Source: an uncultured Lachnospiraceae bacterium
GTDB taxonomy: Bacteria > Bacillota > Clostridia > Christensenellales > UBA1242
Direction of reading: 5' to 3'
DNA: 64,000 nt
NCBI GenBank assembly: GCA_964405555.1
Contig: CAYOOB010000004.1
Location: forward strand, 10,165 to 74,164
Under the pieces are notes generated by a model, which was not told the DNA's origin, searched no databases, and saw only the letters and a list, made by a program, of their open reading frames with translations. Shown in pieces: positions 26,788 through 60,488 of the stretch (within the stretch, counting starts at the first letter, position 1; each line of letters starts with the position of its first letter). The position numbers and the translations under genes are program-made.

Positions 26788-26846
26788 ATTGTGGTAATTA
26801 TTGCATAATACACTATATATTGTGGTATTATGCATTGCATACCACC
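26788..26846. repeat. Palindromic spacer element, copy A
   Basis: TTGCATAATACACTATATATTGTGGTATTATGCA (26801-26834), flanked by half arms ATTGTGGTAATTA and TTGCATACCACC. Confidence 0.85.
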
Positions 26847-27118
26847 AAAATACATCATTATAACATATAATATAAAACAAGTTTTTTTTCAAAAATCTTA
26901 AAGCTACAACAAACAAATACATTCAAGCAAATTATTTAAGATTGTTAGTTAAAATAAAAACAAACAAAAAAAATAATCGATGAAAATTGAAAGATCAAAA
27001 TAGAAAGATGAAAAAAGATGAAAATAGAAATAGTAAAGAGATAAATAAGAAGTATGAAAAAAATCAACTTATCAAAATTTAATTTAAATTCTTAAACAAA
27101 AGGAAAAAGGGAAAATTT

Positions 27119-27808
27119 GTGTGGACAGATAGAACAGAAATTTTAGTTGGAAAAAGTGGCATTGAAAAACTAAAAAACTCACATATTATAATTGTTGGCA
27201 TTGGTGGTGTTGGCGGTTTTGTGTGTGAGTTGCTTGCTCGTGCTGGAATTGGCGAACTTACCATTATAGATTTTGATGTTGTTGATGAAACAAACATTAA
27301 TAGACAAGTTGTGGCAAATGCGGACACAGTTGGTAAATTAAAAGTTGAGGTTATGTCTGAAATCATAAAAAAAATTAATCCAAATTGTAAAGTGAATGCC
27401 ATCAGCGAACGATTTTGCAAAGAAAACTTACAAAACTTCAATAAATTGTTTAATTCTCAGAATTGTTCTTATGTGGTGGATGCCATTGATGATGTCAGAG
27501 GGAAAGTCGAACTGATTTGTTTGTGTAAAAACAAGAATATTCCAATTGTTTCAGCAATGGGTGCTGGCAATAGGGTTGAAATTCCGCAGTTTAAAGTTAT
27601 GGATATATACCAAACAACAAACGATGGCTTAGCAAAAGTTATGCGTAGGAATTTAAGACAAAGAAATATCGACCACTTGGATGTTGTCACTTCTCAACAA
27701 ATTCCATTAAAAACTGAAAATACAACAGTGGGCAGTATTTCGTATTTTCCTGCAATGTGTGGATGTGTTTTATCTGGATATATTGTTCAACAAATTTTAT
27801 CTAAATAA
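27119..27808 (+). CDS. tcdA: ThiF/HesA-family protein, tRNA threonylcarbamoyladenosine dehydratase (TcdA)-like
   Basis: IIIVGIGGVGGFVCELLARAGIGELTIIDFDVVDETNINRQ nucleotide-binding motif, and a size of about 230 aa. Confidence 0.7.
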   Translation: MWTDRTEILVGKSGIEKLKNSHIIIVGIGGVGGFVCELLARAGIGELTIIDFDVVDETNINRQVVANADTVGKLKVEVMSEIIKKINPNCKVNAISERFCKENLQNFNKLFNSQNCSYVVDAIDDVRGKVELICLCKNKNIPIVSAMGAGNRVEIPQFKVMDIYQTTNDGLAKVMRRNLRQRNIDHLDVVTSQQIPLKTENTTVGSISYFPAMCGCVLSGYIVQQILSK

Positions 27809-27927
27809 AACAAAATAAATGAAAATTGTCACAAAAAAAATAGTTTTTTTACAAAATTGTAAATAATATTATCATATTATAAAACAATGTAAAAATCGCT
27901 TTAAGTTAAGAAAAAAAATCAAAACAA

Positions 27928-27956
27928 TTGTAATTTATACTAATAAGTGTTACAAT
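27928..27956 (+). promoter_or_regulatory. Sigma-A promoter of trxA
   Basis: TTGTAA, a 17 nt spacer, then TGtTACAAT. Confidence 0.55.
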
Positions 27957-27997
27957 AATTATGACAATTTATATTTGAAAAGGAGAAAGATTAATTA

Positions 27998-28306
27998 ATG
28001 GAAATTATAAACGAACAAGAGTTTAAAGAAAAAACAAAAAAAGGAGTCGTTTTGATTGATTTTTTTGCTACATGGTGCGGACCTTGTCGTATGATGAATC
28101 CTATTTTAGAAGATGTTCAAACGGAACTTGGTGATAAAGTGCAAATTTATAAGGTTGATGTCGACCATGAAGAAAAACTTGCTAAAAATCATGGAATTAT
28201 GAGTATTCCAACACTCATTTTATTCGTCGACGGACAGCAAAAAGAAAAACATATCGGGCTTTGGATGAAAGAGGATTTACTCGCAACAATAAAAAATTAC
28301 ATTTAA
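27998..28306 (+). CDS. trxA: Thioredoxin
   Basis: WCGPC active site; 102 aa. Confidence 0.95.
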   Translation: MEIINEQEFKEKTKKGVVLIDFFATWCGPCRMMNPILEDVQTELGDKVQIYKVDVDHEEKLAKNHGIMSIPTLILFVDGQQKEKHIGLWMKEDLLATIKNYI

Positions 28307-28540
28307 GTTGCCATATAATTATTATTTAATGTTTGCATTCATTCAAACATTCACTAAACCAATCATTCAACTCATCACAACTTACAACTTTTAAATATAA
28401 AGAGTGCTTTTGGTGTGCTTCTACATGGGGTGCTTCTACATTTTGATTGCTTTTATATGAATATTTACGAAATTAACTCTAAATTTTAACATTTAATTTA
28501 AAGATGTAATAAAATTTATTTATAAAAACAAATTTAACTA

Positions 28541-28569
28541 TTGACAATCATGATTTTTAGTGATAAAAT
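28541..28569 (+). promoter_or_regulatory. Sigma-A promoter of the iscS-iscU pair
   Basis: TTGACA, a 17 nt spacer, then TGaTAAAAT. Confidence 0.65.
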
Positions 28570-28648
28570 TGTCTTGAATATACCAATTTGCTGAAACTGT
28601 TAAAAAGTTCTATTTTCACAGCAAATTGTTAAAAGGGTTTTGAGATCT

Positions 28649-29824
28649 ATGGAAAGAAGAATTTATTTAGACAATGCTTCCACAACTTATGTTTCTAACG
28701 AAGTTCTTAATGAAATGTTGCCATGTTTCAACTCGATATATGGTAATGCTGGTTCGTTGCATAGTTATGGAAGAGATGCAATGGCAATCGTTGATCATGC
28801 TCGTGACAGAATCAAAGAAGCTATAAATGCACAAAAAGCCAATGAAATTTATTTCACAAGTGGCGGAACAGAAGCAGACAACTGGGCAATTATTGGAGTT
28901 GCTCACGCAAATGCAAACAGAGGAAAACACATAATCACAAGCCAAATTGAACATCATGCTGTACTTAATGCGTGTGCTCAACTTGAAAAGGAAGGTTTTG
29001 AAATTACCTATTTACCTGTGGACAGCACAGGGCTCGTTAAATTGCCAGAACTTCTTCATTCAATTAGAAAAGACACAATTTTAATTTCTATTATGGCTGT
29101 GAATAATGAAGTTGGAACTATTCAAAATGTTAAAGCAATTGCAAAAATTGCTCATGATTACGGAATTTTGTTCCATACAGATGCAGTGCAAGCAATCGGA
29201 AACATTGCAATTGATGTTCAGGACATGGAAATCGATTTACTTTCAATATCTGCACATAAAATTCATGGTCCAAAAGGTGTTGGTGCACTTTACGTGAAGA
29301 ATGGTGTTAGAATTGAACAAATCACTTATGGTGGCGAGAGTCAAGAACGAGGAAAAAGAGCAGGAACAGAGAATGTGCCAGCAATTGCTGGTTTTGGAAA
29401 GGCAATTGAATTAGCTTGCAAAAATCATATTATTGACAATAAAAAAATTAGAGCAATTAGAGAATATTTCCTTGATAAACTGAACGAAAAAGTTGAGTAT
29501 TTCCAAATTAATGGACATCCATATCAAAAGTCTAATGCTATTTTAAACATTTCGTTCTATGGTATTGAAGGAGAATCAATTTTAATGTTGTTAGATTTGG
29601 CTGGAATTGCCGTTTCGACATCTTCAGCGTGCACATCAAAATCATTGCTTCCTTCTCATGTTCTTAAAGCAATGGGCATTTCAGATGAGATTGCACAAGG
29701 TTCAATAAGATTTTCATTTGGAACAAACATTTCAAAGTCTGATGTAGATTATGTTGTTGACGAAGTTGCAAAAGCAGTTGCTAAACTTCGAGCAATTTCA
29801 CCAATTCAAGCAGGGAGGTTGTGA
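28649..29824 (+). CDS. iscS: Cysteine desulfurase (NifS/IscS type)
   Basis: YLDNASTT N-terminus, PLP-lysine motif SAHKIHGPKG, and SSACTS. I prefer the ATG at 28649. Confidence 0.9.
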   Translation: MERRIYLDNASTTYVSNEVLNEMLPCFNSIYGNAGSLHSYGRDAMAIVDHARDRIKEAINAQKANEIYFTSGGTEADNWAIIGVAHANANRGKHIITSQIEHHAVLNACAQLEKEGFEITYLPVDSTGLVKLPELLHSIRKDTILISIMAVNNEVGTIQNVKAIAKIAHDYGILFHTDAVQAIGNIAIDVQDMEIDLLSISAHKIHGPKGVGALYVKNGVRIEQITYGGESQERGKRAGTENVPAIAGFGKAIELACKNHIIDNKKIRAIREYFLDKLNEKVEYFQINGHPYQKSNAILNISFYGIEGESILMLLDLAGIAVSTSSACTSKSLLPSHVLKAMGISDEIAQGSIRFSFGTNISKSDVDYVVDEVAKAVAKLRAISPIQAGRL

Positions 29825-29827
29825 TTT

Positions 29828-30241
29828 ATGTATAGCAAAACAGTAATTGATAGGTTTCAAAATCCAAGAAATGCAGGTGGAATGCATGGTGCTAATGCCA
29901 TTGGACAAGTAGGAAATGTTGCCTGTGGCGATATTATGAAGATGTATTTAAAAATCACTGATGACGGGGTGATTGAGAATGCAAGATTTAAGACATTTGG
30001 TTGTTGTGTGGCAATTGCTTCAATTGATATGGCGTGCGATTTAATTAAAGGAAAAACAATAGAAGACGCACTAAAAGTAACAAACAAGAACATTCTTGAT
30101 ATGTTAGGAGAACTTCCTCCACATAAAATTCATTGCTCAATATTGGCAGAAGAATCAATCAGATCAGCAATCGAAGACTATTACAAACGCAAAGAAAAAA
30201 AGATAAAAAAAGAAACAAAATTAGCACAAATGGACGACTAA
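29828..30241 (+). CDS. iscU: Fe-S cluster scaffold protein IscU/NifU
   Basis: NPRNAG.......G.VGN.ACGD, FKTFGC and HCS motifs. Confidence 0.9.
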   Translation: MYSKTVIDRFQNPRNAGGMHGANAIGQVGNVACGDIMKMYLKITDDGVIENARFKTFGCCVAIASIDMACDLIKGKTIEDALKVTNKNILDMLGELPPHKIHCSILAEESIRSAIEDYYKRKEKKIKKETKLAQMDD

Positions 30242-30359
30242 CAAAAACAAATAATTATACTTGATAAATCGTAATTTTGTCTTTTATAAGATAAATATCA
30301 TTTAAAACAAATTGTATTGATGCTTCTTGTCGCAAATTAGAGGAGTAAGGTTATAGATT

Positions 30360-30851
30360 ATGACATACGGAGAATTAATTAGTCGTGCATTTGATGTTTA
30401 TTACGAAAATGGACGCAACTACCCAGCCAACCTGCTGTATCCCGTTGTATCGTCAAACAACGAGAAAGTGGCTGTTGACATTTTTATGGATTGTTATGTT
30501 TTGCGAGATCAAACCGGGAAAGTGATTCAGATAAAAGAACCGCTTGAAATTCTGAGTTGTACTTTGGATGGTAAAAGCGCAGAATTCGTTAATGCTAGTA
30601 CCATCGATGGAAATTACTGGTTGGCGAGTCCTAAATTTGATATAAGTTCATCCATAGATGACTTTCAAGAGCTTTATATGCAGGTAAGACAGTTTGTGTT
30701 TATGGATTGTTTGTCCATTGAACAGTTAGAAGCATTAAAAAAACTTTTATACATCTATGATTGTCTTTTTGAGCAGGAGTTAAAGGACATTTATCATAGG
30801 TTTGGTGCCAAATTCTTTGAATGGGCTTATCATGTACTTGGGGCAATATAA
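30360..30851 (+). CDS. Hypothetical protein (163 aa), orphan
   Basis: The ORF has a GAGGAG SD. I recognise no motif. It looks slightly GC-richer than its neighbours by eye; this was not computed. Confidence 0.5.
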   Translation: MTYGELISRAFDVYYENGRNYPANLLYPVVSSNNEKVAVDIFMDCYVLRDQTGKVIQIKEPLEILSCTLDGKSAEFVNASTIDGNYWLASPKFDISSSIDDFQELYMQVRQFVFMDCLSIEQLEALKKLLYIYDCLFEQELKDIYHRFGAKFFEWAYHVLGAI

Positions 30852-30864
30852 CGGACATTGAATC

Positions 30865-30896
30865 AGTGCTATCTAATAAAAGTGCTATCTAATAAA
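30865..30896. repeat. Perfect 16 bp tandem duplication (AGTGCTATCTAATAAA x2)
   Basis: Read directly; it lies just after the stop codon of the 30360 ORF. Confidence 0.9.
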
Positions 30897-31112
30897 ATAG
30901 TCATAGTATGGTTGACAGAAAAAAAATACGCTTGAAAGTATCTGCTGTACTCATTTTGCTTTTTTGCAAGAACAGTAAGCGAAAAGAGATTCAATGGTGA
31001 ACAATTTCTAAGTTGATTGACTGAGCGAATGAGCAAACTATGATTAAAGATTCGGTTTTTATAAAACAAGCAAAAACTTTTAAGGATACCGGCATAGAGC
31101 TTACGGAGAATT

Positions 31113-31148
31113 CTTCTTAAATACGAGGTTATTTAAGAAGTTTTTTTT
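31113..31148 (+). terminator. Strong Rho-independent terminator
   Basis: Perfect 10 bp stem CTTCTTAAAT / ATTTAAGAAG, 8 nt loop, then T8. Confidence 0.8.
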
Positions 31149-31201
31149 ATGATATTGAATGTAAATTCGATGCTAATTGATAAACTAGATGAAATTTAAT
31201 A

Positions 31202-31256
31202 AGTTTTAAAATTTGAAACCGTTTTAAAATTTTGAAAATGTTTTAAAATTTGAAAG
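31202..31256. repeat. Three direct repeats of GTTTTAAAATTTGAAA
   Basis: GTTTTAAAATTTGAAACC GTTTTAAAATTTTGAAAAT GTTTTAAAATTTGAAAG. Confidence 0.85.
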
Positions 31257-31280
31257 AAAATACAAAAACATAAAGAGATT

Positions 31281-31301
31281 ATTGTGTGGAGGTATTATGC
31301 A
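31281..31301. repeat. Palindromic spacer element, half copy B (right arm)
   Basis: ATTGTGTGGAGGTATTATGCA. Confidence 0.6.
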
Positions 31302-31496
31302 AGGTTTACAAAATTTTAAAATTTAAGTTATTGTATTACATACAAATAAGATTGAATAAAATTTAATTAAAAAAATCATGCATAAGGTAAATTGGAATAT
31401 ATTGATAAAATTAAAGAAATAAAAGTAAGATTAGAGATATAATTTTAATTTACAAATAAAAACACCAAATGATAAAAATCTTACAAAAAAGTTAAA

Positions 31497-31515
31497 GGTA
31501 TTATGCATTATAATC
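31497..31515. repeat. Palindromic spacer element, half copy C
   Basis: GGTATTATGCATTATAATC. Confidence 0.5.
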
Positions 31516-31737
31516 AAACAAAAAAATGAAATTAAATGAAACTATAATAAAATTGAATTTATAAGAAAGATGTTTAAAAAAGAAATTACAAAATAATAAA
31601 ACAAAGAGATAAAAAGAGATAAGATGTTGTAAAAGAGAATTTGTATTAATAAAAGAAATAAAAAACAAATTTAATTAAATAAGATATAATTAAGAAACAT
31701 AAACAAAATTTTTTAATTTAAAAAAAAGATAAAAACT

Positions 31738-31780
31738 TTGCATAATACAATATATTGATGTTGTAAATTGCATAATACGC
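31738..31780. repeat. Palindromic spacer element, copy D (two left arms)
   Basis: TTTGCATAATACAATATATTGATGTTG followed by TTGCATAATACGC. Confidence 0.75.
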
Positions 31781-32586
31781 AAAATATAGCCTATCTATGC
31801 GTAAAACCTGTCTTTTGCGAATAGATTTAGATTGTTTTATAACATAAAAAATGATAATCTCCCAAAAAAATTTCATAAAATTTGATTTGTTTCTTTCTAC
31901 TATTCCTACTTTCTTATCTATTGAAATTCTCTATTTTTAAATCTTATAATTTTTAACTCACACCTTTTATCAGAACTTAATTAAAAACTTTTGATTTTTG
32001 TATATATTTTTATATCGTCCCTCTTGTGCTTGCAAAAAGTTGTTTATTAAACACTTCACGCATTATTATTCAAAAATCGATTGATTATATAAAGCAATTT
32101 TATTAATTTTGTATTAGTTGATTTTTGTAATAGATTTTAGTTTTTTTTAAAGACTTCCAATATTTTCTGCGTCCCCTAAAAAAAAGAATTTCTTTGTGGG
32201 AGTTGTAGAATTTTGGTCTTATCCCCCAATATTTTTTGGTAAGTTTTTGTATTCGTTAAACAAAACTTCTGGTCACCTATTGAAAAATCTTTGCAATAAA
32301 ATAAGTTCTCCATTCAATTTCACTACTACACCCTGATATTGATTATAAAGAGTTGAAATCTAATTTGTGTAATACCTTTTCCATTCATTTATATTAAACC
32401 CAAAATCAAAATTTTAATTTGTCAATTCATCTCGCTTCTAAAATAAATCTTGTCCTTTGACATTAAAATTTCGATTTGTTGTCACTTAATAAAAATTTTT
32501 GTTTACAACTTTCATTTACATTATCCGCTGTTTTGATTTCGTTTACAATTTATCTTTTTATTTCTTACCACCACCTATCTTTAATT

Positions 32587-33759
<1,173 letters not shown>

Positions 33760-33842
33760 TTAAATTGTAATAGTGATTTCTATTTTGTCTATACTTATTT
33801 ATCTATTCTTATTTATTATTGTCTTATTTATTATTGTCTTAT

Positions 33843-34544: not shown

Positions 34545-34600
34545 TCTTCTTATCTCTCCTTTTATTCCTATTTAGAATTGTTTATTTCCCTCGTTAATCA

Positions 34601-35659: not shown

Positions 35660-35915
35660 TACATCCTCTTTATAATTTGTTTTTTCTTTATAATTTGTTT
35701 GTTAATTTTGTTTTTCTTGTTAATGTTGAATTTATATTTAACTAATATTAAACTGAATATTAAACTGAATATATTTTATTATTGATTATTCCATTTTTTT
35801 AATGTAATTTTTATGTTGATTGTTTATGTTATTTCAATGTTTTTATTGTATATAATTTTGTTTCTGTCTTGATTGTGTGAAATTTATTAAACCGATTTTT
35901 ATGTTCGCTTACTCC

Positions 35916-36917: not shown

Positions 36918-37054
36918 TATGTTCTACCTTCTTTATTTATTTCTTTTTTTTTATTAACTTCTTTTTTTTGTTAACTTCTTTTTTTGTTTATCCCTTTGTT
37001 TTTTCAATTCTTGTTATTTATCTCTCTCGTTCTTAACTTTATAATTTTATTTAT

Positions 37055-37110
37055 CAATATATGGTGTATTATACAGTATTATTGATAGCATACCACAACA
37101 ACATATTGTG
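37055..37110. repeat. Palindromic spacer element, copy E (right arm plus left arm) in the ruvA-ruvB spacer
   Basis: CAATATATGGTGTATTATACA .. GCATACCACAACAACATATTGTG. Confidence 0.7.
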
Positions 37111-37163
37111 TTTTATATTTTGTGATGGTTTTTATAGTTTTTGTTTAATTATTGAAATAAATT

Positions 37164-44706: not shown

Positions 44707-45088
44707 AATTTCCCTTCCTTTTTTAGTTTTTGATTTTCTTTTGCTTGTTTTTGATGTCGTTTCGCAGTATATCAAGCCCATAAATCTTGCCAATAAGTAA
44801 CAACTTATTTATTCTAAAACTTTCTTACAAAACATGAGATTTTTGTATTAATAAATATGTATGAATTGTCTTTCTCAAACATATTAAGTTTTACATTATT
44901 TAAGTCTTTCCGTTTATCGTGCTAACCTACTTTTATCATGTAGATTTAAAATATACTCCAACACATTCTAAGCAAACATAAACAGTATGAATTTTATCAC
45001 ATAAAAAATAAAAAAGCAACAATATTGCGTCAATTTTACATTAATTTATAACAAATTTTGTATATATTTGGATATATCATAAATATAC

Positions 45089-45148
45089 TACGAAAATAAT
45101 ATCGAAAAGTCCCAATATAAGTCGAAAATGCTTAAACTTGGTCGAAAT
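45089..45148 (+). promoter_or_regulatory. Cluster of four TCGAAA (Spo0A-box-like) motifs
   Basis: TACGAAAA, ATCGAAAA, GTCGAAAA and GTCGAAAT start at 45089, 45101, 45121 and 45141. The last three each match the 0A box TGNCGAA at 6/7. Confidence 0.25.
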
Positions 45149-45466
45149 TCATCTGTTTTATTTTTTATATCTAAATTTTGTCAACATTCAATTCGTCTAC
45201 ATCTAAATTTAATTTATGTTTGTTTAGTTTTATTTACATTCGTTTTTATTTAATTGAATTTATCTAAACGAAATATTACGAAAAATTCCCTAAACAATTA
45301 TTTCTAATCCAACTTCTAACTATCTCTAATCCCACTCTCCATATCTCTCTATTTTCTTTAAACTTTGTTTTTACATTGTTAACATTGTCTATGTATTACC
45401 TACCTTAACTAACCAAAACTAACAGCACACATTAATCTTAAATTCGCAGCAATTTTTTATAATAAA

Positions 45467-45556
45467 CAATATTTTGTGTAGTATGTATGCATAATACACC
45501 ATAATTAGGTGGTATGCAAATGCATACTACCGGTGTTATGCACTTGCATACTACCC
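45467..45556. repeat. Palindromic spacer element, copy F (array of about 3.5 units)
   Basis: GTGTAGTATGTA TGCATAATACACCATAATTAGGTGGTATGCA AA TGCATACTACCGGTGTTATGCA CT TGCATACTACCC. Confidence 0.85.
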
Positions 45557-45608
45557 ATTCCCCAAACAACCACACACCACAGAATGTATTTTATTTGTTA
45601 ACATATAA

Positions 45609-47969: not shown

Positions 47970-48075
47970 AATACCACAATATATTGTATATTCTTTTTGC
48001 ATAATACAATATATTTTGATGTATTATGCAAATTATATCCTTAAAAAAATATTTTGCATAACACATCAATTTTGT
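47970..48075. repeat. Palindromic spacer element, copy G (three units) in a divergent promoter region
   Basis: AATACCACAATATATTGTATA; TTGCATAATACAATATATTTTGATGTATTATGCA (47997-48030); TTGCATAACACATCAATTTTG. Confidence 0.85.
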
Positions 48076-48105
48076 TTGACAAACACTTTATTAATGGATT
48101 AAAAT
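48076..48105 (+). promoter_or_regulatory. Possible sigma-A promoter of the PadR-fusion gene
   Basis: TTGACA, an 18 nt spacer, then TAAAAT. Confidence 0.35.
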
Positions 48106-48346
48106 ATTATATGTAATGAATAGAGTTGAAGTGCTTTTATGTCAATTACATATAGCCCCGCTTATAACCATAATCAACACAACAAGAAAAAACAAAAGAT
48201 AACAAAAGATAACAAAAGATAACAACGATAAAACAGTGAAATAGCTGAAAACTTAACATCAAAAATGATAAATCTTAAAACTTCTAATAAATAAACTCAA
48301 AAATAAACAAACTCAAAAAATTAAAATAAAATTATAGGAGAAATCT

Positions 48347-50299
48347 ATGGCTTTCAATTCAACTGGTGAAACACAATTTCTAATTTTGGACAGCCTGTCA
48401 AGTGGTTCCAAATACGGCTTAGAAATGATTGACTACATTTCAACAAGGTCTGGCGGAAACTATATACTTAAAAAACCAACCCTATATTCCTGCCTAACCC
48501 GCATGGAGAAGAAAGGATGGGTTTCTTCTTCGTTTTGGGGCGAAAGTGAATTTGGTGGAAAACGCCATTACTATTCCATAACTGATGAAGGAAGAAAAGT
48601 TTTAGATGAACTAGAAAAAGAAAGTGCTAATTTTTCTTTCAACAATAAATATGGTGACGGCGTAAACCAAAACAGCCAAATTGATTTAAATATTTCAACC
48701 TCAGAAGAAACAAAACCACATAGTTCTATCTATCTTCAACAAGATAACATTTTCAGCATGATTGAAAAGAATAAATCCGATTTAAATACTCAAACACAAA
48801 GCCAAAACACCAAACAAGACGAAAAAGGGATTGTTTCTCCTAATCAAATAGATTTATTTTCTTTTCAGAACACAACATCTCAAACTTCCACCAATTCTTA
48901 TCAAGAGAATTTTAAAAGTTTAGATGAAAACAACAAATTTAATAGTGAAGAACAAACCTCAAAAGAGAGGTATTATAAATCGATTTTAGAACAAAATTCA
49001 CAATCTCAAATCTTTAATAACTATCAAAACGCAAAAAACAACGAAAATTTAGAAGGTATCTCATATAAGAAAGATGATGCCAGATTTTTACATGAGGATG
49101 AAAGGTTAACCCCAGATCAAGAAGAACAAAACAAACGCCTTTACGACACTTCGAACGAACTTAAAAAATTCCGTAAAAAGAAGAGTTTTTCCGAAAACCA
49201 AATCGAACTTTCTGTTGTGTATGAGAACGAAGAAGACAGAGAAATTCAAAAACAGCGAATTGAACAACTTAAAGCTTCTATGTTAAATTTAAAAGAGAAT
49301 GGATTCCAAACAGAAAAGGTAGATCTCTCCTTATATTCTCAAGATTCAAACAAACAAGAACATTTACAACCTCAATTTTTTCAAGGTCAAGACAATTCAC
49401 AAAATTTATCACAAACATACGAAGAAAAAACAACACAACCACAGTATTCACAAGTGGATGATGGTCGACTTATTTACAGGCAAGATACCATACAAACTCG
49501 AAATATCACTTCAGACGAGCCTGAAAACTCAAAAGACGATGCAATTTTCATCACTTCAAGAATTAAAGAGAATGAGATACCTGTTCAACGAAAAATTCTC
49601 CCAACAAATATTGAAGTTGATATTAGTAGTCACCTGCCAGCACCTAAACGCAACAGTAACCTTGAACCAACTTATAAAGATATGATGTCAAGGTTATTTG
49701 AAAGGAAAAAGGAAAAATGGCAAAACAAAACAACAGTGAAAACTGTTGAACAAGAAACCCCAACGCAGTTAAGCGAGAATTATTCTGATGTTGGCAGTTT
49801 TGGAGATTATGGCAGTTTGAAGAAATATTATGCTGGTCACAACATTGAATTTAAAGAATTTAAGAGTTCAAATGTTGAACGCGAACATAACACCAACTAC
49901 CTACTCCTACTAAATTCAATCGCTCTATTCTTGCTGAGCGGAATTGGTTGTTTAATCACCTATGGAATACTTGCTGGTGTTGGCATATTGAATGTAAGCA
50001 CTAATTTCTTGTTATACACCTTGCCTATACTCTTCCTAATTTACGCAATTTATTCATTCATTAAATACAAATTATATCCAAGTAAAAAAGCCTCGCTAAC
50101 CTATGGGTGTCTTGTAAACTGGTCAATATTTTTGCTTGGCACGATGATTGTGGTTATTGCAAATGTAATTGCTGGTATGCAAGTGGAAACATTTAGTGAA
50201 TATTGCACATCATTGGTAATTCCAATTTTTGCACTTTTACTTACATTCCCTATTAACTACCACATAAAAAAAGCTTTATTTAAAAAATATGCAAAATAA
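48347..50299 (+). CDS. PadR-family winged-helix regulator fused to a long low-complexity linker and a C-terminal 4-TM domain
   Basis: N-terminal LILDSL..G.KYGLEMIDYI...LKKPTLYSCLTRMEKKGWV..GGKRHYYSITDEGRK; about 400 aa rich in Q/N/S/E/K; hydrophobic helices in the last ~140 aa. Confidence 0.7.
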   Translation: MAFNSTGETQFLILDSLSSGSKYGLEMIDYISTRSGGNYILKKPTLYSCLTRMEKKGWVSSSFWGESEFGGKRHYYSITDEGRKVLDELEKESANFSFNNKYGDGVNQNSQIDLNISTSEETKPHSSIYLQQDNIFSMIEKNKSDLNTQTQSQNTKQDEKGIVSPNQIDLFSFQNTTSQTSTNSYQENFKSLDENNKFNSEEQTSKERYYKSILEQNSQSQIFNNYQNAKNNENLEGISYKKDDARFLHEDERLTPDQEEQNKRLYDTSNELKKFRKKKSFSENQIELSVVYENEEDREIQKQRIEQLKASMLNLKENGFQTEKVDLSLYSQDSNKQEHLQPQFFQGQDNSQNLSQTYEEKTTQPQYSQVDDGRLIYRQDTIQTRNITSDEPENSKDDAIFITSRIKENEIPVQRKILPTNIEVDISSHLPAPKRNSNLEPTYKDMMSRLFERKKEKWQNKTTVKTVEQETPTQLSENYSDVGSFGDYGSLKKYYAGHNIEFKEFKSSNVEREHNTNYLLLLNSIALFLLSGIGCLITYGILAGVGILNVSTNFLLYTLPILFLIYAIYSFIKYKLYPSKKASLTYGCLVNWSIFLLGTMIVVIANVIAGMQVETFSEYCTSLVIPIFALLLTFPINYHIKKALFKKYAK

Positions 50300-50595: not shown

Positions 50596-50649
50596 GAAAA
50601 GAGATGATTAGTTCGTGAAGGACAAATTTTACATCTCTTTTCTTTTTTT
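50596..50649 (+). terminator. Rho-independent terminator (long loop)
   Basis: Perfect 11 bp stem GAAAAGAGATG / CATCTCTTTTC, 25 nt loop, then T7. Confidence 0.55.
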
Positions 50650-51502: not shown

Positions 51503-51534
51503 AAAAAAGACCTCAATTCATTTATATGAGGTCT
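51503..51534 (-). promoter_or_regulatory. Terminator-like hairpin abutting the start codon that sequesters the SD
   Basis: On the - strand: AGACCTCA-11 nt-TGAGGTCT-TTTTT-ATG. The only GAGG SD sits in the 3' arm. Confidence 0.5.
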
Positions 51535-51841
51535 ATCCTTAAAATAGCACAACATTACAAAATTACTAAAAATTACATTTTTATCTTTACCTTTAGTAAG
51601 TTTTCTAAAAGTTGTTATTATTTAAACATAATTATATTTCTATAACTATTAAAATTAGTTATATTTTAATAATTATATAATTATAATTATTTAGTTTTTT
51701 TATAGTTAAATAAAACAGTCCAATCTATATTCTAAGATTTTTTATATACAAATATTCACTTTAAAATGTCACTGATGAGCGAATTTAAAAATATAAACTA
51801 ACATATTAAAAACATACTTTATACTGATTTTTGATAAGGCA

Positions 51842-53500: not shown

Positions 53501-53759
53501 CATAAACCTCACGTCAATTTTCACTATCATTTTACAACATATCACAAAAATTTGCAAGCAAACTTCCAATATTACAAAGCCTATTTCTCTTAACAAAAGA
53601 GTATAAGTTGAAGGAGTTTACAAATAAATTGAAAAAGATAAAAAGAAGAATAAAGAATAAGCAAAATTTAAAAAATAAGAATATTAGATTAACAACCAAT
53701 CAATTACTTAAATAGAATAGAGAACATAAATCATTAAGTAATACAAATAAAAAAACTCT

Positions 53760-54212
53760 CTAAGAGAGTAGTTGTTGAAGTGTTGAAACTGCATCAGATG
53801 CAAACACCACAGTTGGAAAAATCAAAAGAATTGTGTCATCTCCATAAGTAGAACCCATTAACTCATTCAAGTTGAATTTATCAATGAAAGAAGACACCCC
53901 AGACCCCATACCTTTAATAGTTTTTATAACCGCCAAATTGAGTGCTGGCTTCACAGATATAACACATTCCTTAAAGATATTTATGTATTTATTAGAAACG
54001 ACTTGTTGTTCATTTCCTAAAATAGCATACTTATATCTTCCAGAACTACCCAAAATTTTTGTCAAACCAAGCTCTTTGATATCACGTGAGATTGTTGCTT
54101 GTGTGATATCAAAGTTAGCATTTTTCAATTCTTTTGCAAGGTCATCTTGAGTTTCAATCTCTTTTGTGGAGATTAATTCCAAAATTTTGGATTGTCTTGC
54201 ACTTCTTGCCAT
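53760..54212 (-). CDS. argR: Arginine repressor ArgR/AhrC
   Basis: R...I..I......I.TQ..L...L......TQATISRDI.EL N-terminus and a C-terminal GT.AGDDT-like motif. Confidence 0.9.
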   Translation of the reverse strand: MARSARQSKILELISTKEIETQDDLAKELKNANFDITQATISRDIKELGLTKILGSSGRYKYAILGNEQQVVSNKYINIFKECVISVKPALNLAVIKTIKGMGSGVSSFIDKFNLNELMGSTYGDDTILLIFPTVVFASDAVSTLQQLLS

Positions 54213-54282
54213 TTCTTTCTCCTTGAAGCCTACACACGCCTATTTTAGGGATATGTAGCGATTTTGCATAAATATAAATTCA

Positions 54283-54432
54283 TGAATATTCATGCATTTT
54301 TGATTATTATACAATAAAATTTATAAATATGCAAGTGATTTTTGTATATTTATTCACTCATTTTTTATAAAAATTTCAAATCTTGCAAATTTATAAAAAC
54401 GAAATTCATAATTATAAGTGAATATACATTTT
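54283..54432 (-). promoter_or_regulatory. Candidate ARG boxes upstream of argR
   Basis: TGAATATTCATGCA (54283-54296), TGTATATTTATTCA (54343-54356) and TGAATATACATTTT (54419-54432), compared with the core TGAATwwwwATTCA. Confidence 0.35.
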
Positions 54433-54731
54433 CATTTATAAACGCCATACAAACAATAACTTACACACCACAATCATCATATATACCAACCCACATATAA
54501 TCTTAAACCAAACCGTGAATTATACTTACATCAATTCACAACAACCCATCATCATCAATAATCACCAATTATCAATAAGTCAATTAGAAACAAAACAATT
54601 AACAATAAGTTAATTAACAATAAACCAATTACAACAATTCAATAAGCAACAAACCAATTAACAGTAAACCAGATAAAACAACTATTCAACAATAAGCATA
54701 AGTATTATTTAACGAACTGATTATAAACAAT

Positions 54732-54766
54732 AAAAAATGACATATCAACACAATATGTCATTTTTC
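54732..54766. terminator. Bidirectional-type terminator downstream of thiI
   Basis: Perfect 9 bp stem ATGACATAT / ATATGTCAT, with A6 on one side and T5 on the other. Confidence 0.65.
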
Positions 54767-54927
54767 TATAATTTCAATAGCTTTATTTATTATTTTCTTT
54801 TTTTATTATCTTTGATTATAATCACAACAACAACCTTTCACCACCAACCTCAAACACCTAAATATCAAATACTTAAACCATTACAAAAGTGTAAGTGTTG
54901 CCATATTGTATTTTTTAGAATGTTTAA

Positions 54928-56121
54928 TTAGTAGTTATTTATAATCATAACCTCTTCGTTATTAACAGCAATTTCCACCAACCTTTCAATATCCAACCTT
55001 TCTTCCAACTTTTCCGCACGAGAGATAGTTGGTCGAATCACTGGGTTCTTTGGAAGAAACACCGTACAACAATCTTCATAAGGTAATATAGATGTTTCGT
55101 AAGTTTTAATTTTCTTTGCTACATCCATAATCTCCTCTTTGTCAAAAGCAATCACTGGACGAAACACCGGTAATGAAACCACCGAATTTGTAACACTCAT
55201 ACTTTGCATAGTTTGACTTGCCACCTGTCCCAAACTCTCACCAGTGATAATTGCACCCAAATTGTTTTGTTGACAAATTTTCTGTGCAATTCTCATCATA
55301 ATACGACGCATAATTGTAATCATATATTCACTATCGCAAAATCTGTGAATTTGCTCTTGGATATCCGTAAAAGAAACTATATGTAATTTAATTTCTCCAC
55401 AGTAAACAGAAATCTGTTTGGCGAGTTCAATAACCTTTTCTTTCGCCTGAACACTTGTGTATGGAAACGAGTGAAAATGTACCGCTTCAAGTTTAAGTCC
55501 ACGCTTTGCCATTAGATAACCAGCAACAGGACTGTCAATTCCGCCAGATAACAACAGCAAACCCATGCCAGCACTTCCAAGAGGCAACCCGCCAACACAT
55601 TTAATCAATCTATCATATATATATGTTTTTCCATTTGTTCTAACTTCAACATATAAGGTCTTTTCCGGATGATATAAATCAACTTTCAACTTAGTTGACG
55701 AAGCACCCTCTTTATATCTTTTTTCACTTTCATTAAGCACCACTTCACCCAAATGCGATGCCAGTTCCATTGATGTCATCTCAAACTTCTTATCCGCTCT
55801 TTTAGCCTCAACCTTAAATGTTGAAACGTTATTCATATCAACCTTTTTAACTTGGCTTTCAATTTCTGTTAGCGTACTTTCAACCTCGTAAGCATCGGCA
55901 ACAGCAATTAAACCAAAAACCTCTTGCAGTTTAGATATAATTTCATCTTCAAATGAAAGGTCATATTCACAAACAATCAGCCTACCCTGAGTTTCCACAA
56001 CCGCACAATCAAACTCACGAAGCTTCTTCCTTATATTTAACATCAAAAGTTTGATAAAATCATGGCGATTTTTACCTTTCAAGAACAATTCACCAAACTT
56101 TAACAATAAAACTTTTTTCAT
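54928..56121 (-). CDS. thiI: tRNA 4-thiouridine synthase ThiI
   Basis: KFGELFLKGKNR N-terminus, THUMP domain, and PP-loop LLLSGGIDSPVA. Confidence 0.9.
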   Translation of the reverse strand: MKKVLLLKFGELFLKGKNRHDFIKLLMLNIRKKLREFDCAVVETQGRLIVCEYDLSFEDEIISKLQEVFGLIAVADAYEVESTLTEIESQVKKVDMNNVSTFKVEAKRADKKFEMTSMELASHLGEVVLNESEKRYKEGASSTKLKVDLYHPEKTLYVEVRTNGKTYIYDRLIKCVGGLPLGSAGMGLLLLSGGIDSPVAGYLMAKRGLKLEAVHFHSFPYTSVQAKEKVIELAKQISVYCGEIKLHIVSFTDIQEQIHRFCDSEYMITIMRRIMMRIAQKICQQNNLGAIITGESLGQVASQTMQSMSVTNSVVSLPVFRPVIAFDKEEIMDVAKKIKTYETSILPYEDCCTVFLPKNPVIRPTISRAEKLEERLDIERLVEIAVNNEEVMIINNY

Positions 56122-57386
56122 AACACTTTTTCCTTAATCTCTTGATATGTTTCTTTTATAATATTACCTGCTTTAACAACTTCATCCTCACTCATATAAG
56201 CATTAAAACTAATTCTCACACTCGAAATAATTTCATCTGCATTCAAACCAATCTTATCAAGCACTCTATTACCAGCTTTTTTAGAAGAACACGCACTACC
56301 AAGCCCCACAATAACACCTTTCTTATTAAGTGCATGAAGCATCGTTTCCCCCTTCACACCTTGAAAAATAAGGTTTTCAATGTATGGAGAACCTCCAAAA
56401 TCCTTAATTAAAATTTGGTTTATATCTTTACTTACTTGGTTTAATTGTTTAATATCTATCTTTTTCAACACTTCATTGGTATTCGCATCTAAATTCTTAA
56501 TCTGTCTTTTTTCATGTTTCAAAGCAACTTCCACATTCTCGATATTTCCCATATTTCCGATATTTTCATCACTTTGCAAAGTGGAGTTAAACAAACTTTT
56601 AAGATTACTTACCTTTTCAAAGTTAACTTTTTCATCAATCATTTCAACCGCCTTTCTAAGTTGCATTATACCAGAAACATTTTCTGTTCCCGAACGCAAC
56701 CCATATTGTTGACCACCACCTTGAAAAAATTCTTTAAGCCCACCTTTATTTTTCACATAAAGTCCAGCAATACCCTTCGGCGCATGAAACTTATGACCAC
56801 TAAAAGAATATAAATCAACCGCAGTTTGCTTTAAAGAAAAAGGAATTTTCATAAAACCTTGCACACCATCAATATGCAAAATCGCTCTAGGACAATATTT
56901 TAGTTTAATTTTTGATATTTTTTCAAGGTTGTTAATCGCACCAGTTTCATTACCTACATGAATTATGCTTATTAACCTAGTTTTTTCGTTAACAACTTTC
57001 TCTAATTCATCATAATCCACACAACCATTAGATTGAAGTGGCACAAAATGAACTTTATAACCTTCCATTTCTAATTTTTTCGCAACATTATAGACCGAAG
57101 GATGTTCCCCTTCGGAAAAAACATACTCCCAATTACCAGAACGCAATGAACCCTTAATTGCAAGATTATTACTTTCAGTTGCACACCCAGTGAAAAGAAT
57201 ATTTCCTTCTGTAACACCCAACCTTTTTAAAATGTATTTTTCAGTTTCTACAATTTGCTTATAAGTTTGCATAGATTCAATAGAAAGTGCAGAAGGATTA
57301 AAGAACTGATTACACGAAAACTCTCTATGAATTTCCACGCATTCATCAAACATCTTTGTCGTTCCAGCATTATTAAGATAAATCAT
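56118..57386 (-). CDS. Cysteine desulfurase paired with thiI (like nifZ-thiI of B. subtilis), with a low-complexity insert
   Basis: YLNNAGTT N-terminus and PLP lysine FSGHKFHAPKG. A 4 nt overlap links it to thiI. I prefer the ATG at 57386. Confidence 0.85.
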   Translation of the reverse strand: MIYLNNAGTTKMFDECVEIHREFSCNQFFNPSALSIESMQTYKQIVETEKYILKRLGVTEGNILFTGCATESNNLAIKGSLRSGNWEYVFSEGEHPSVYNVAKKLEMEGYKVHFVPLQSNGCVDYDELEKVVNEKTRLISIIHVGNETGAINNLEKISKIKLKYCPRAILHIDGVQGFMKIPFSLKQTAVDLYSFSGHKFHAPKGIAGLYVKNKGGLKEFFQGGGQQYGLRSGTENVSGIMQLRKAVEMIDEKVNFEKVSNLKSLFNSTLQSDENIGNMGNIENVEVALKHEKRQIKNLDANTNEVLKKIDIKQLNQVSKDINQILIKDFGGSPYIENLIFQGVKGETMLHALNKKGVIVGLGSACSSKKAGNRVLDKIGLNADEIISSVRISFNAYMSEDEVVKAGNIIKETYQEIKEKVL

Positions 57387-57717
57387 TTTCACCTTCACCT
57401 CTCAAAAAAAATCAACTACAATAAACAACCTCAAAAACAAACTATTGCAATATAGCCTCAAGCCATGAATAATTTTTATTTTTTATTTATTCTTCATTAT
57501 CTTCTTTTATTTTTCATTATCTTCTTTATTTATTCTTTATTATTTCCTTTATCTATTCCAGATTTTTTCTTTTTATTGTCATTGTCAAAATATTCTGATT
57601 AACTAAAATTTAATATAACAATCTAAATTGACATTAATATAACATTGACACAAAATTGAATTAAATAAGAAATTCAAACAATATCTATCTCTCTTTAATT
57701 ATAACCAAATTACAAAT

Positions 57718-57769
57718 CAATATATTGTGGTGTTACGCATTATATTAATTGAATAACACCACAATATTT
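57718..57769. repeat. Palindromic spacer element, copy H (perfect 12 bp hairpin)
   Basis: ATTGTGGTGTTA (57724-57735) pairs with TAACACCACAAT (57754-57765). The flanks are CAATATATTGTGG..CGCATTAT. Confidence 0.8.
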
Positions 57770-57801
57770 AGTTTTGAATTAATCAAACAAAACTCATTTT
57801 A

Positions 57802-60228
57802 TTAATTATCTCTTAGTTTCGCACCACATCTAAACTGCAAACTTTTCAAAACTTTGTTCATAACCTGATTAATCTCATCCCCCGTCAATGTTTTATCTTC
57901 ACTAATAAACACAATTTTGTAAGCCATACTTTTCTTTCCCTCACCGAGAGAAGAACTTCGATAAACATCAAACAAGTTAACATCATAAAACATTTTACCA
58001 GATGCAGATTTTATCACTTCCATAAGTTCTTCGTTCGTGACTTTTTCATCAACCACAACTGCAATATCACGTTCAACAGGAGGAAATTTAGAAATTTCTT
58101 TAGTAGAAAATTCTTTCTCTGGCAAACTTGAAAGATAATCAGTGTCCAATTCCCCATAATACACATCTTGACTTATATCATAGTTCTTCAAAACTAACTT
58201 GTGCACCTTACCAAACCAACCAACAACACTGCCATCCTCAGCCACAATATCAGCACTAACTCCGCCATGCAAATAAGGTTCTTTGGAACGTCTTAAAGAA
58301 TATTTTAAAGAAGTTCCAATCAATAAATTCTCCACAATTCCTTTCATCTGAAAGAAATCAAACCCAACCTCACAAATTGCAAAAGAAAGGCGATTATTTT
58401 CCACAGGGAGTTCAGTTAAAGGTAATGATTTTGGCAAGTACACCCTACCTTGTTCAAAGAATCTAAAATCTTTATTTCCAACAGACAAGTTATATGTCAC
58501 ATCCAGCAACATAGCATGAGCCATAACAGTTCTTGCCGTGGATAAATCTTCACTTATAGGATTTGCAACCTTAATAACATTTCTTCTAACATCATTATCA
58601 TCAAGCAAAAGTTTATCACACGCAGATGCCGAATATAAAGAGTAGTTCAAAGTTTCATAAAAACCCATATCAACCAAAATGTTTTTCAACCCATTTTCAA
58701 ACTGTAAGCGAGGCTCAAACTTACCAAGCGTGGTAGCAGAATTTTCAAACGCAACACCCTCAATGTTATTATAGACATCATAACCATATATTCTAATAAT
58801 TTCTTCAGCAATATCATTCACAGTGTTAATATCCTCACGTGTTACAGGTGGAATACAAACAAGTTGGTCGCCGTCAATCGAACTTTCAATAGCAAGCCCA
58901 TTCAAAATTTTCAACATTTTCTTTTTATCGATTTCAAAACCTAAAATCTTACATACTTTTGAATACGAAACTTTTATCTCTTTTCGCTGGTTCAACTTCT
59001 GACTGCAAATATCAATAATACCATCAACAATCTCTCCACATTTCAATTTGTCAACTAAATGAAGTGCCCTCTTCATGGCTACACTTGGAAGATTTATATT
59101 CACACCCTTTGAATACCTTGCTGATGAATCTGTGTTCAAACCAAACTTTTTAGCAGTCAAGCGAACACTCTTCAAATCAAACACCGCACATTCAAAAACA
59201 GTTTCAGTTGTGGTTTCTGTAACACAAGAATTCACACCTCCAATAACACCAGCAATTACAACAGGTTTTTTAGAGTCAGCAATCACCATAACATCTTTGT
59301 CGAGATTGTATGTTTGTCCGTTCAACACAGCAATTTTCTCATCCGACTTTGCTTGACGAACACAAATATGCCCACCTTCAAGATATTTATAATCAAAAGT
59401 ATGCATAGGTTGCCCCTGCTCAATTAGAATATAATTCGTTATATCAACCATGGTGTTAATCGGTTTAATACCAACCGCATGAAGTCTACTTCTCATCCAA
59501 AGTGGTGCCTTTTCAAGTTTTATATTTTTAATATAACCAGCCATATATCTTGGGCAGTTTGGTGTTTTAACTTCCACACTAACATATTTGTTTACATCTT
59601 CATCATTTTTACTTGTTTTGGTTGTTTTATAGGAGATATCAAAATCGATAAACTTTCTGTCAAACATAGCACAAACTTCACGAGCAATACCAACAACACT
59701 ATTGCAATCAGGACGATTTGGAGTGACATTAACATCAAAAACAACATCATTTAGCAACAAAGCATCCTCAATTTTTGTTCCCGGAACAAAGTCGTTTGGC
59801 AAGATTAAAATTCCATTAATTCCGGCACCTTCAAAGTAGTTTTCATCGATACCAAGTTCCTCTCCAGAACAGAACATTCCATCACTCTTCACACCTCGAA
59901 AATTGGTAGGCTTGATTTTAACACCATTACACAAATCCGCACCTTCTAACGAAACAGGAACCACAGCTCCTTCAAAAACATTGGTTGCTGAAGTGATAAT
60001 TTGAACCTTTTTAAAGCCCACATCAACCTGACAAATAACAAGCCTGTCAGCGGTTGGATGTTTTTCAATCTTTGTGATTTTGGACACATAAACATCGTGA
60101 AGATGTTCATTCATATAATCAATTTCTTCCACCTCAAACCCAGATACTGTCAACTTTTCTGCAACTTCTTCTGCGGTTAAATCTTTCAAATCTACAAAAT
60201 CTTTAAGCCAATTATATGAAACTTTCAT
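57802..60228 (-). CDS. pheT: Phenylalanyl-tRNA synthetase beta subunit
   Basis: MKVSYNWLKDFV N-terminus, with tRNA-binding, B3/4, B5 and FDX-ACB regions at the expected length. Confidence 0.95.
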   Translation of the reverse strand: MKVSYNWLKDFVDLKDLTAEEVAEKLTVSGFEVEEIDYMNEHLHDVYVSKITKIEKHPTADRLVICQVDVGFKKVQIITSATNVFEGAVVPVSLEGADLCNGVKIKPTNFRGVKSDGMFCSGEELGIDENYFEGAGINGILILPNDFVPGTKIEDALLLNDVVFDVNVTPNRPDCNSVVGIAREVCAMFDRKFIDFDISYKTTKTSKNDEDVNKYVSVEVKTPNCPRYMAGYIKNIKLEKAPLWMRSRLHAVGIKPINTMVDITNYILIEQGQPMHTFDYKYLEGGHICVRQAKSDEKIAVLNGQTYNLDKDVMVIADSKKPVVIAGVIGGVNSCVTETTTETVFECAVFDLKSVRLTAKKFGLNTDSSARYSKGVNINLPSVAMKRALHLVDKLKCGEIVDGIIDICSQKLNQRKEIKVSYSKVCKILGFEIDKKKMLKILNGLAIESSIDGDQLVCIPPVTREDINTVNDIAEEIIRIYGYDVYNNIEGVAFENSATTLGKFEPRLQFENGLKNILVDMGFYETLNYSLYSASACDKLLLDDNDVRRNVIKVANPISEDLSTARTVMAHAMLLDVTYNLSVGNKDFRFFEQGRVYLPKSLPLTELPVENNRLSFAICEVGFDFFQMKGIVENLLIGTSLKYSLRRSKEPYLHGGVSADIVAEDGSVVGWFGKVHKLVLKNYDISQDVYYGELDTDYLSSLPEKEFSTKEISKFPPVERDIAVVVDEKVTNEELMEVIKSASGKMFYDVNLFDVYRSSSLGEGKKSMAYKIVFISEDKTLTGDEINQVMNKVLKSLQFRCGAKLRDN

Positions 60229-60423
60229 TTCCTTTCTCCCTTATTTTTTAATCTTATAATCTTTCCATTTATTTCTTAAATTATTTCTTTTTTATTACAT
60301 TATTTCATATTTCAACATTATTTCATATTTCAACATTATTTTATCTTTCATTACCTAATATCTATTAATTCTATCATCTCACTTGCTCACTTGTTTATTT
60401 CAAATTGTCAAAATTGTAATGCT

Positions 60424-60488
60424 TTGCATAATACACAATATATGGTGTAGTATGCACGCATAATACACTTTATGTAGTGTAGTATGCA
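60424..60488. repeat. Palindromic spacer element, copy I (two tandem full units, ~32-33 bp period) in the pheS-pheT spacer
   Basis: TTGCATAATACACAATATATGGTGTAGTATGCA (60424-60456) followed by CGCATAATACACTTTATGTAGTGTAGTATGCA (60457-60488). Confidence 0.9.

Follow-up and report, generated by a model that had tools for sequence, protein, structure and literature searches.

A short palindromic repeat recurs between, and in one case within, the genes of a 64,000-nt stretch of DNA from an uncultured gut bacterium of the order Christensenellales, family UBA1242 (GenBank assembly GCA_964405555.1, contig CAYOOB010000004.1, positions 10165-74164; this whole stretch is referred to as the window). The reading that we prefer, to which we give not quite an even chance, is that the copies are selected, lineage-wide sites in double-stranded DNA for NrdR or an NrdR-like recognition protein, with a distribution resembling that of REP (repetitive extragenic palindromic) sequences and BIMEs (bacterial interspersed mosaic elements). 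They would thus be duplex binding sites of an oligomeric protein, multiplied within the uncultured gut Christensenellales and maintained there by selection. The original prediction, made from the bases of the window alone, had offered three explanations for the repeat, and these have fared differently: operators with an NrdR-like box are now the best supported, likeness to REP sequences or miniature inverted-repeat transposable elements (MITEs) stands for the distribution only, and RNA hairpins have lost support.

Presence and enrichment of the repeat

The window has a G+C content of 32%, is ~74% coding (non-coding ~26%), which is an unusually low density of genes, and has spacers of 23% G+C. 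Its gene content includes SpoIVB, RecN, ArgR, ClpX, Tig, RuvABC, QueA/Tgt and PheST, and operons that are tight in other organisms are broken up in it by long A+T-rich spacers. The repeat is built from a left arm, L, of the form TGCATAMYAC(AC), a right arm, R, which is the reverse complement of L, and a core. Nine intergenic loci had been listed in the original prediction, and on reading each of them directly we found the arms as described at 9/9. The arm was found to vary at two positions rather than the one first proposed, position 7 of TGCATAMYAC being A or C and position 8 T or C. The statement that the family is restricted to spacers needs correction, as one clear copy, missing from the original list, sits within the coding sequence (CDS) of a SpoU-type methyltransferase (12444-12482), and a look-alike reported at 4538 did not reach a significant score.

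Searching with TGCATAATAC and allowing at most one mismatch gave 23 matches in the window, compared with 6.0 +/- 2.6 (maximum 14) in 100 shuffles. In addition, we used a half-site weight matrix trained on loci fetched via protein homology and not via the motif. This matrix detected 27 arms window-wide, 23 of them inside the 16,470 nt of intergenic DNA, and 200 dinucleotide-preserving shuffles of the same spacers contained 0.70 +/- 0.78 arms (maximum 4). The repeat therefore came through the comparison with AT-matched shuffled spacers that had been suggested for it, and the two shuffle comparisons together rule out chance or a low-complexity artefact. Cluster density in the window is ~10 per 64 kb, roughly one per 6 kb, and the copies are as follows.

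12431-12482: copy within the CDS of the SpoU-type rRNA methyltransferase; R 12444-12455, 1 nt, L 12457-12468, core ACACAAGATATAGTAA 12467-12482
26788-26847: (degenerate R)-L-core-R-1 nt-L array in the spacer upstream of tcdA/thiF (hslU|thiF); L 26802-26813, core 26810-26825, R 26823-26834, L 26836-26847
31281-31301: single R arm (31290-31301, score 17.7) in a 1.7-kb convergent spacer
31496-31515: single R arm (31496-31507, score 15.6) with a degenerate partner, in the same 1.7-kb convergent spacer
31738-31792: two direct L arms (31739-31750 and 31769-31780), each followed by a core (31745-31760 and 31777-31792); core linker 16 bp
37052-37111: ruvA|ruvB spacer; core 37052-37067, R 37064-37075, 11-nt gap, L 37087-37098, core 37096-37111
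45464-45556: core-R-L-core-R, L-R, L array, 52 nt past the spoIVB stop and ~700 nt upstream of tig
47974-48066: divergent spacer between a YgjP-like gene and a PadR-domain gene; lone core 47974-47989, L 47998-48009 / R 48019-48030, L 48055-48066
57715-57774: pheT|iscS-like spacer; core 57715-57730, R 57728-57739, 10-nt gap, L 57750-57761, core 57759-57774
60424-60489: pheS|pheT spacer, two full 32-bp units in tandem; L 60425, core 60433-60448, R 60445-60456, then L 60457, R 60477-60488; core linker 16 bp

Anatomy of the unit and its likeness to NrdR boxes

A full unit consists of a 16-bp core, A-C-a-C-w-A-t-A-T-a-T-w-G-t-G-T, between the flanks TGCATAMY and RKTATGCA. Where the order is L-centre-R, the 12-nt arms enclose a centre of 8 nt (20 cases) or 9 nt (12 cases); where it is R-gap-L, the gap is bimodal, at 0-1 nt (28 cases) or 9-11 nt (20 cases), and in arrays the two arrangements alternate with a period of 32-33 bp. 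Among 29 aligned units with an 8-nt centre, core positions 4, 6, 8, 9, 11 and 13 are conserved at 81-88% and positions 5, 7, 10 and 12 at only 45-64%, and most positions of the flanks, RKTATGCA and TGCATAMY, are conserved at ~90-100%. The linkers between arm-associated cores also fall into two classes, of 15-18 bp (16 cases) and 25-28 bp (10 cases), which lie about one helical turn apart.

NrdR, a protein with a Zn-ribbon and an ATP-cone, is described as specific for ribonucleotide reductase genes, with sites that overlap promoters. Its box is 16 bp long, has conserved C4, A6, A8, T9, T11 and G13 and requires an A+T-rich centre (PMC13584703); the consensus given in the original prediction agrees with these positions. 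A C-N9-G variant is tolerated in one of two boxes, and the sequence of the linker between boxes is not conserved (PMC13584703). Tetramers of NrdR need two boxes; good binding is seen with linkers of 14-17 bp and, one helical turn longer, of 24-27 bp (PMC12051234). The repeat shares with such operators the length of the core, the six conserved positions together with the same weak ones, the A+T-rich centre and occasional C-N9-G variants, and the logo of the 29 units agrees with that of NrdR at each position. Its cores likewise come in pairs, with a linker of ~16 bp or about one helical turn longer, the long class peaking at 27-28 bp, and single-box sites occur too (12467 and 47974).

In the window, all six critical positions are present in the cores at 60433, 26810, 37052, 37096, 57715, 57759, 47974, 45464, 31745 and 31777. 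The ruvA|ruvB copy keeps all six in both of its cores, yet its arms are degenerate. At 60.4 kb, where two units had been placed ~32 bp apart, the cores lie 32 bp apart start to start as proposed, and the second has 5/6 critical positions. Strict NrdR boxes number 37 in the window, compared with 19 for a control pattern, and 11/37 adjoin arms.

The unit would on this evidence be an NrdR-type 16-bp box lengthened by a conserved 8-bp flank on each side (TGCATAMY / RKTATGCA), and neighbouring boxes, ~3 or ~4 helical turns apart, would present the geometry needed by the NrdR tetramer. The conserved flanks may add contacts or may bind a second factor. Since both box and spacing fit the NrdR tetramer, we infer that the most likely binder is NrdR or a protein of the same recognition geometry; that it is NrdR itself seems possible, but somewhat unlikely. 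The PadR-domain protein encoded at 48347-50299 is an alternative candidate binder. Its gene lies on the forward strand and encodes 650 amino acids, in which only an N-terminal PadR domain is recognized, and a protein of 538-656 amino acids is found at the same position in L204-L207 (L numbers refer to loci fetched from relatives).

The differences from known NrdR operators are also marked. There are ~10 clusters of the repeat per 64 kb, compared with one to three NrdR sites per genome, and they are found at gene ends, in operon interiors, in convergent spacers and in one CDS, rather than at promoters. No copy here adjoins an nrd gene, and neither in the window nor at the loci examined is one located at an nrd or nrdR promoter. 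The linker, rather than being unconserved, consists of the conserved arm pair RKTATGCA / TGCATAMY and so has a strongly fixed form (ATTATGCA-N0-1 or N9-11-TGCATAAT), and its long class peaks at 27-28 bp in place of 25-26 bp.

Conservation of the box-critical bases

We compared orthologous sites in related species. In the ruvA|ruvB and hslU|thiF spacers, the first core retains all six critical bases in 6-7 species, and variation is seen in the gap, in the outer flanks and at core positions 5, 7, 10 and 12. The orthologous site of the 31738-31792 pair is conserved in L120, L122, L127, L129 and L130. L204-L207 have orthologous copies in the pheT|iscS-like spacer; L208 has none. Besides the window, L204-L208, whose PheS identity goes down to 76%, and ~9 loci among the genome-scan matches listed carry the pheS|pheT array, and outside the array this spacer is unalignable between species.

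The copy within the SpoU-type gene gave the clearest contrast. In the stretch 12431-12482, 9/10 conserved-residue codons are identical in 7 species, compared with 12/81 elsewhere in the gene (Fisher p = 3.3e-6). The core keeps C4, A6, A8, T9, T11 and G13 in 7/7 species despite residue changes (D/H/N/Y and I/V), and the bases that do vary are those that NrdR does not need. As the outgroup proteins align with this one free of gaps, the copy is not an insertion. The box-critical bases are thus under purifying selection, even at synonymous sites within a CDS.

These data bear on an alternative that we regard as unlikely, namely that the repeat is a selfish REP/BIME-like palindrome, spread or homogenized by a transposase (RAYT-type, that is, REP-associated tyrosine transposase, or other) or by gene conversion and tolerated at gene ends, its likeness to NrdR boxes being coincidental or a relic of the mobilized sequence. 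Sites that persist across species in otherwise unalignable spacers speak against it, as does a site in frame within a CDS that is conserved at synonymous positions and did not arise by insertion. The distribution and history of the repeat, described below, are the evidence on its side.

Duplex DNA or RNA hairpin

A second alternative, which we consider improbable, is that the copies act as RNA hairpins in operon transcripts, stabilizing the upstream message, marking processing or tuning translation of the next gene. Most copies are indeed transcribed within operons. A T-box leader precedes pheS at 61613-61893 (reverse strand; 88.5 bits, just below the Rfam gathering score of 93), ends in an ordinary terminator (stem 61624-61601) and is also present in L204-L208; from this leader and terminator it follows that pheT is transcribed, from the T-box-controlled pheS promoter, through the pheS|pheT array. 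Predicted RNA folds were stable, at -20 to -34 kcal/mol with z of -3.3 to -4.7, at 4/5 loci folded, and compact relatives have the last arm or core right beside the Shine-Dalgarno sequence.

The pairing of the arms, however, does not behave as that of a selected stem. Arm position 6 is the same in 17/38 pairs (18.9 expected) in one comparison of paired arms and in 18/52 (26.4 expected) in another, and position 7 is the same in 30/52 (27.8 expected). Across the 52 facing pairs we found no compensatory changes, the variable positions being independent or anticorrelated, and in 34/52 facing pairs the middle of the stem is interrupted by an A.G or C.U mismatch. Compensatory changes are normal for REP hairpins, and their absence counts against the selfish palindrome described above as well. 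Although both cores are retained in the window copy at ruvA|ruvB, its predicted fold is not more stable than that of shuffles (z = -0.59). The absence of compensatory changes and a conserved copy that barely folds are the reasons why the hairpin explanation of the original prediction has been weakened.

Counted on the transcribed strand, there are 32 G-U mismatches and 14 A-C ones, an excess that could hint at a role in RNA but would equally be expected from the known C-to-T bias of the non-template strand. Copies between convergent and divergent genes are also unaccounted for by hairpins in operon transcripts. A palindromic pattern of conservation in the 'loop' is unnecessary for RNA; its symmetry, together with the two gap lengths about one helical turn apart, agrees with the binding of a dimeric protein to duplex DNA, and the symmetry also counts against a selfish palindrome. 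A search of Rfam 15 gave no match at the gathering threshold in the whole window and none at E <= 1 in 26000-64000 except the pheS T-box leader.

Directly after the second core of the 31738-31792 pair lies a separate hairpin (31794-31827) with a 14-bp stem (ATCTATGCGTAAAA / TTTTGCGAATAGAT). It is highly conserved (window, L120, L122, L127, L129 and L130), is flanked by A-rich and T-rich runs and, in contrast with the repeat arms, has two compensatory pairs among no more than six species. In appearance it suits either a small RNA or a bidirectional terminator lying between nifSU and queA-tgt, two operons that converge here.

Spread in the lineage and genomic positions

The RuvB and PheS proteins of the window are 76-95% identical with proteins of many metagenome-assembled genomes (MAGs) from the gut, some of them labelled Candidatus Caccovivens, which is placed in the Christensenellales, family UBA1242. 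Scanning species-representative genomes with GCATAMTAC-N8-14-GTAKTATGC returned at least 119 loci. Among the matches listed, about two thirds are chance palindromes from unrelated taxa and ~40 come from related Clostridia MAGs, in which core and tandem arrangement are as in the window. The repeat unit is thus present in dozens of related MAGs. The outgroups L136, L137, L141 and L144 have fewer copies, for example in queA|tgt. Viral contigs contained no match, a result that counts against a selfish element.

In a motif-independent sample, 314.5 kb of loci fetched through RuvA, RuvB and PheS homologues, arms were distributed as follows.

Coding sequences: 0.083 arms per kb
Co-directional spacers: 1.76 arms per kb; 29/197 spacers (15%) with at least one arm
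Divergent spacers: 1.39 arms per kb; 4/18 spacers (22%) with at least one arm
Convergent spacers: 2.84 arms per kb; 9/28 spacers (32%) with at least one arm

The reversed-sequence control gave 0-0.21 arms per kb in the same sample. In co-directional spacers the cluster begins 10-65 nt past the upstream stop codon, and in compact relatives it occupies the spacer as far as the ribosome-binding site. Well-preserved units elsewhere stand beside polA (twice), ftsH (twice), gyrA, smc, recJ and pheST; when the ten largest unassigned open reading frames (ORFs) near clusters were annotated, they included SMC, PolA (twice), GyrA, FtsH (twice), RecJ and an ABC transporter.

This distribution is typical of REP sequences: extragenic, shortly past stop codons, within operons and densest in convergent spacers. 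The arrays, too, are BIME-like, with short imperfect palindromes in high copy clustered in alternating orientation and joined by fixed short linkers, and like the REP/BIME elements of Enterobacteria and Pseudomonas, which are associated with RAYTs, the family is lineage-specific. Some REP/BIME elements bind host proteins (IHF and gyrase). The repeat differs from them in that its arms are only 12 nt long, in that its stem is not upheld by covariation and in its centre, a palindrome like that of a protein site; no GTAG-plus-hairpin signature has been demonstrated for it. A tblastn search of the fetched loci, a small sample searched with approximate queries, gave no match to a RAYT or IS200 Y1 transposase, which for these reasons argues only weakly against a selfish origin. 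Since two features of NrdR operators (location at an nrd promoter and an unconserved linker) and one of REP sequences (stem covariation) are missing from it, we place the repeat in neither family.

Comparison between species also points to inserted DNA, as a selfish palindrome would predict. Relatives with a RuvA identity of <=67% have ruvA and ruvB 0-12 bp apart and lack the element; in closer relatives the distance is 67-246 bp, and nearly the whole spacer is made up of core-R-11 nt-L-core. The element is absent from this spacer in L131 and L132, an unrelated spacer occupies the site in L127 and the arrangement is different in L135. At hslU|thiF, seven species (L120, L122, L124, L127 and L129-L131) carry R-10 nt-L, and the window has the rearranged form L-core-R-L. 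From these two comparisons we conclude that unit-carrying DNA was inserted, probably more than once, and rearranged, as happens in REP and MITE families. MITEs, among them the Correia elements of Neisseria with their promoters and IHF sites, are inverted repeats dispersed between genes that carry protein-binding sites and can sit within operons. The repeat resembles them in that a protein-binding site, here putative, has been carried to many loci, operon interiors included. Across species there are both empty and filled ruvA|ruvB spacers, with flanks too diverged for target-site duplications to be recognized. The unit of the repeat is far smaller (32-33 bp) than a MITE and is arranged in phased tandem arrays; defined termini are not demonstrable.

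Promoters, terminators and other known elements

A portable bidirectional sigma-A promoter with a built-in operator (TTGCAT as -35, 18-19 nt, TATTAT/TAGTAT as -10) was also considered and is very improbable. Hexamers resembling both elements do occur within the arms, the right arm of L135 has turned into TGGTATAAT, 18 nt upstream of the ruvB start, and some units are followed by a start codon at a distance of 25-55 nt. By the standards of sigma-70-type promoters, whose hexamers are 16-18 nt apart, however, the spacer of 18-19 nt and the -35, which matches at 3/6 positions, are poor, and a usable -35 is missing from the common R-gap-L form. Only 2 nt separate the last arm from the pheT Shine-Dalgarno sequence in L207, and 21 nt separate it from the ruvB ATG in L128, which leaves no space for a promoter. 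Eight clusters among the matches listed lie between convergent genes. Canonical TTGACA/TATAAT promoters exist elsewhere, at pheS (61953), nifS (28541), the PadR-domain gene (48076) and 40320; the one at 48076 is a promoter-like TTGACA-18-TAAAAT site that the L arm 48055-48066 abuts. Promoter-like and terminator-like matches overall in the window are at chance level. With canonical promoters elsewhere and copy positions that are incompatible, a general promoter of the lineage was ruled out. Intrinsic terminators were ruled out as well, as the repeat has no U-tract and the lineage uses ordinary terminators (that of the T-box leader and the 31794-31827 hairpin). A DnaA box, a Fur-type 7-1-7 box, a sporulation sigma -10 and a PadR operator were dropped by eye, the variable arm positions or spacing being a misfit.

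Possible role of the sites and evidence against it

The anatomy and phasing of the units, the lack of stem covariation, the spread through the lineage and the purifying selection have been demonstrated; protein binding, NrdR as the binder and the effect of binding are inferred. Because the sites lie just past stop codons, in operon interiors (pheS|pheT and ruvA|ruvB), in convergent spacers and in one CDS, an occupied site would be a roadblock, an insulator or an architectural or decoy site that titrates the regulator, and not a classical promoter operator. Clusters of regulator boxes that are conserved away from regulated promoters are known from datA and other DnaA-box clusters. The repeat is similar in this respect, but titration clusters are few per genome, and here near-identical extended palindromes are found in 15% of the spacers between co-directional genes, 22% of those between divergent and 32% of those between convergent genes. 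In a more far-reaching form, NrdR or a paralogue would have been recruited from ribonucleotide reductase repressor to genome-wide DNA-binding protein, with hundreds of phased extended operator pairs (a number extrapolated from density) that couple read-through or chromosome architecture to dATP/ATP and whose sites spread in a REP-like manner. This we find doubtful.

Several observations weigh against our preference for sites of NrdR or an NrdR-like protein. The arms, which form the linker, are the best-conserved part of the repeat, whereas published NrdR linkers are unconserved, and the peak of the long linker class at 27-28 bp lies at the edge of the NrdR range. A conserved linker and non-promoter positions are together unlike classical NrdR operators. 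Among the matches listed, 8 clusters lie between convergent and 5 between divergent genes, and gene ends face clusters 45 times and gene starts 37 times. A roadblock between pheS and pheT, which share one T-box-controlled promoter, is hard to rationalize. Nor did we find nrd genes or nrdR: tblastn with approximate E. coli and B. subtilis queries gave no nrdR match in the window and 208 loci (~1.8 Mb, small parts of genomes), and no ribonucleotide reductase is encoded among the annotated ORFs of the window or the genes near clusters in the loci examined. The excess of G-U mismatches described above belongs here too. Finally, gene conversion among copies could lie partly behind the conservation of orthologous sites, but it leaves unexplained why the pattern of conservation matches the NrdR logo.

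NrdR is regarded as a dedicated repressor of ribonucleotide reductase genes, yet the repeat reproduces both its box and its helical phasing. If NrdR is the binder, this would be the first massively expanded repertoire of NrdR sites, with a nucleotide-pool sensor acting genome-wide; the alternative outcome would be that Firmicutes have REP-like elements of a new, protein-binding class. The repeat also offers an explanation for the spacers that split pheST and ruvAB in an abundant uncultured gut lineage.

Additional features of the window and related loci

The spacers of the window are 2-4x the length of those of relatives (ruvA|ruvB 246 bp compared with 77-171; pheS|pheT 318 bp compared with 62-220). 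Short A+T-rich units in tandem, for example (AACAAAAGAT)n and (TTATTTCATATTTCAACA)n, occur in them, and repeat-bearing or long spacers include 36918-37163, 44782-45608, 48160-48240, 57440-57570 and 60229-60420. A lone high-scoring arm, TTGCATACCACT (score 20.2; 62522-62533, forward strand), is located within the CDS of an RluA-family pseudouridine synthase; its partner arm and core are both missing, and it may be due to chance.

Both GC skew and gene orientation switch at ~30852-32586, a stretch of 1.7 kb without an ORF of >=80 amino acids. This resembles what a replication terminus would look like; a search there with the B. subtilis and E. coli dif sequences, allowing 7 mismatches, found no dif-like site.

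Between proS and infC there is a lineage-conserved protein of 850-900 amino acids (6845-9541, forward strand; L120 1751-4342; L122 2031-4580) that has no Pfam or NCBIfam match. Upstream of polA, three relatives (L204 2351-2895, L206 3833-4066 and L207 3910-4143) carry a series of ORFs without annotation together with phage holin genes, which suggests a conserved prophage remnant. A synteny break follows the SpoU-type gene (12956-13399, compared with L120 7589-7770): in relatives this gene is followed by yebC-ruvC-ruvA-ruvB but in the window by RNase Y, and the yebC-ruv block of the window lies ~25 kb away on the other strand. Upstream of thiI, the cysteine desulfurase-like protein encoded at 56118-57398 (reverse strand) is matched by NifS/IscS models in two stretches and has 426 amino acids compared with 373-396 in relatives; these ~50 additional residues suggest an insertion within the domain.

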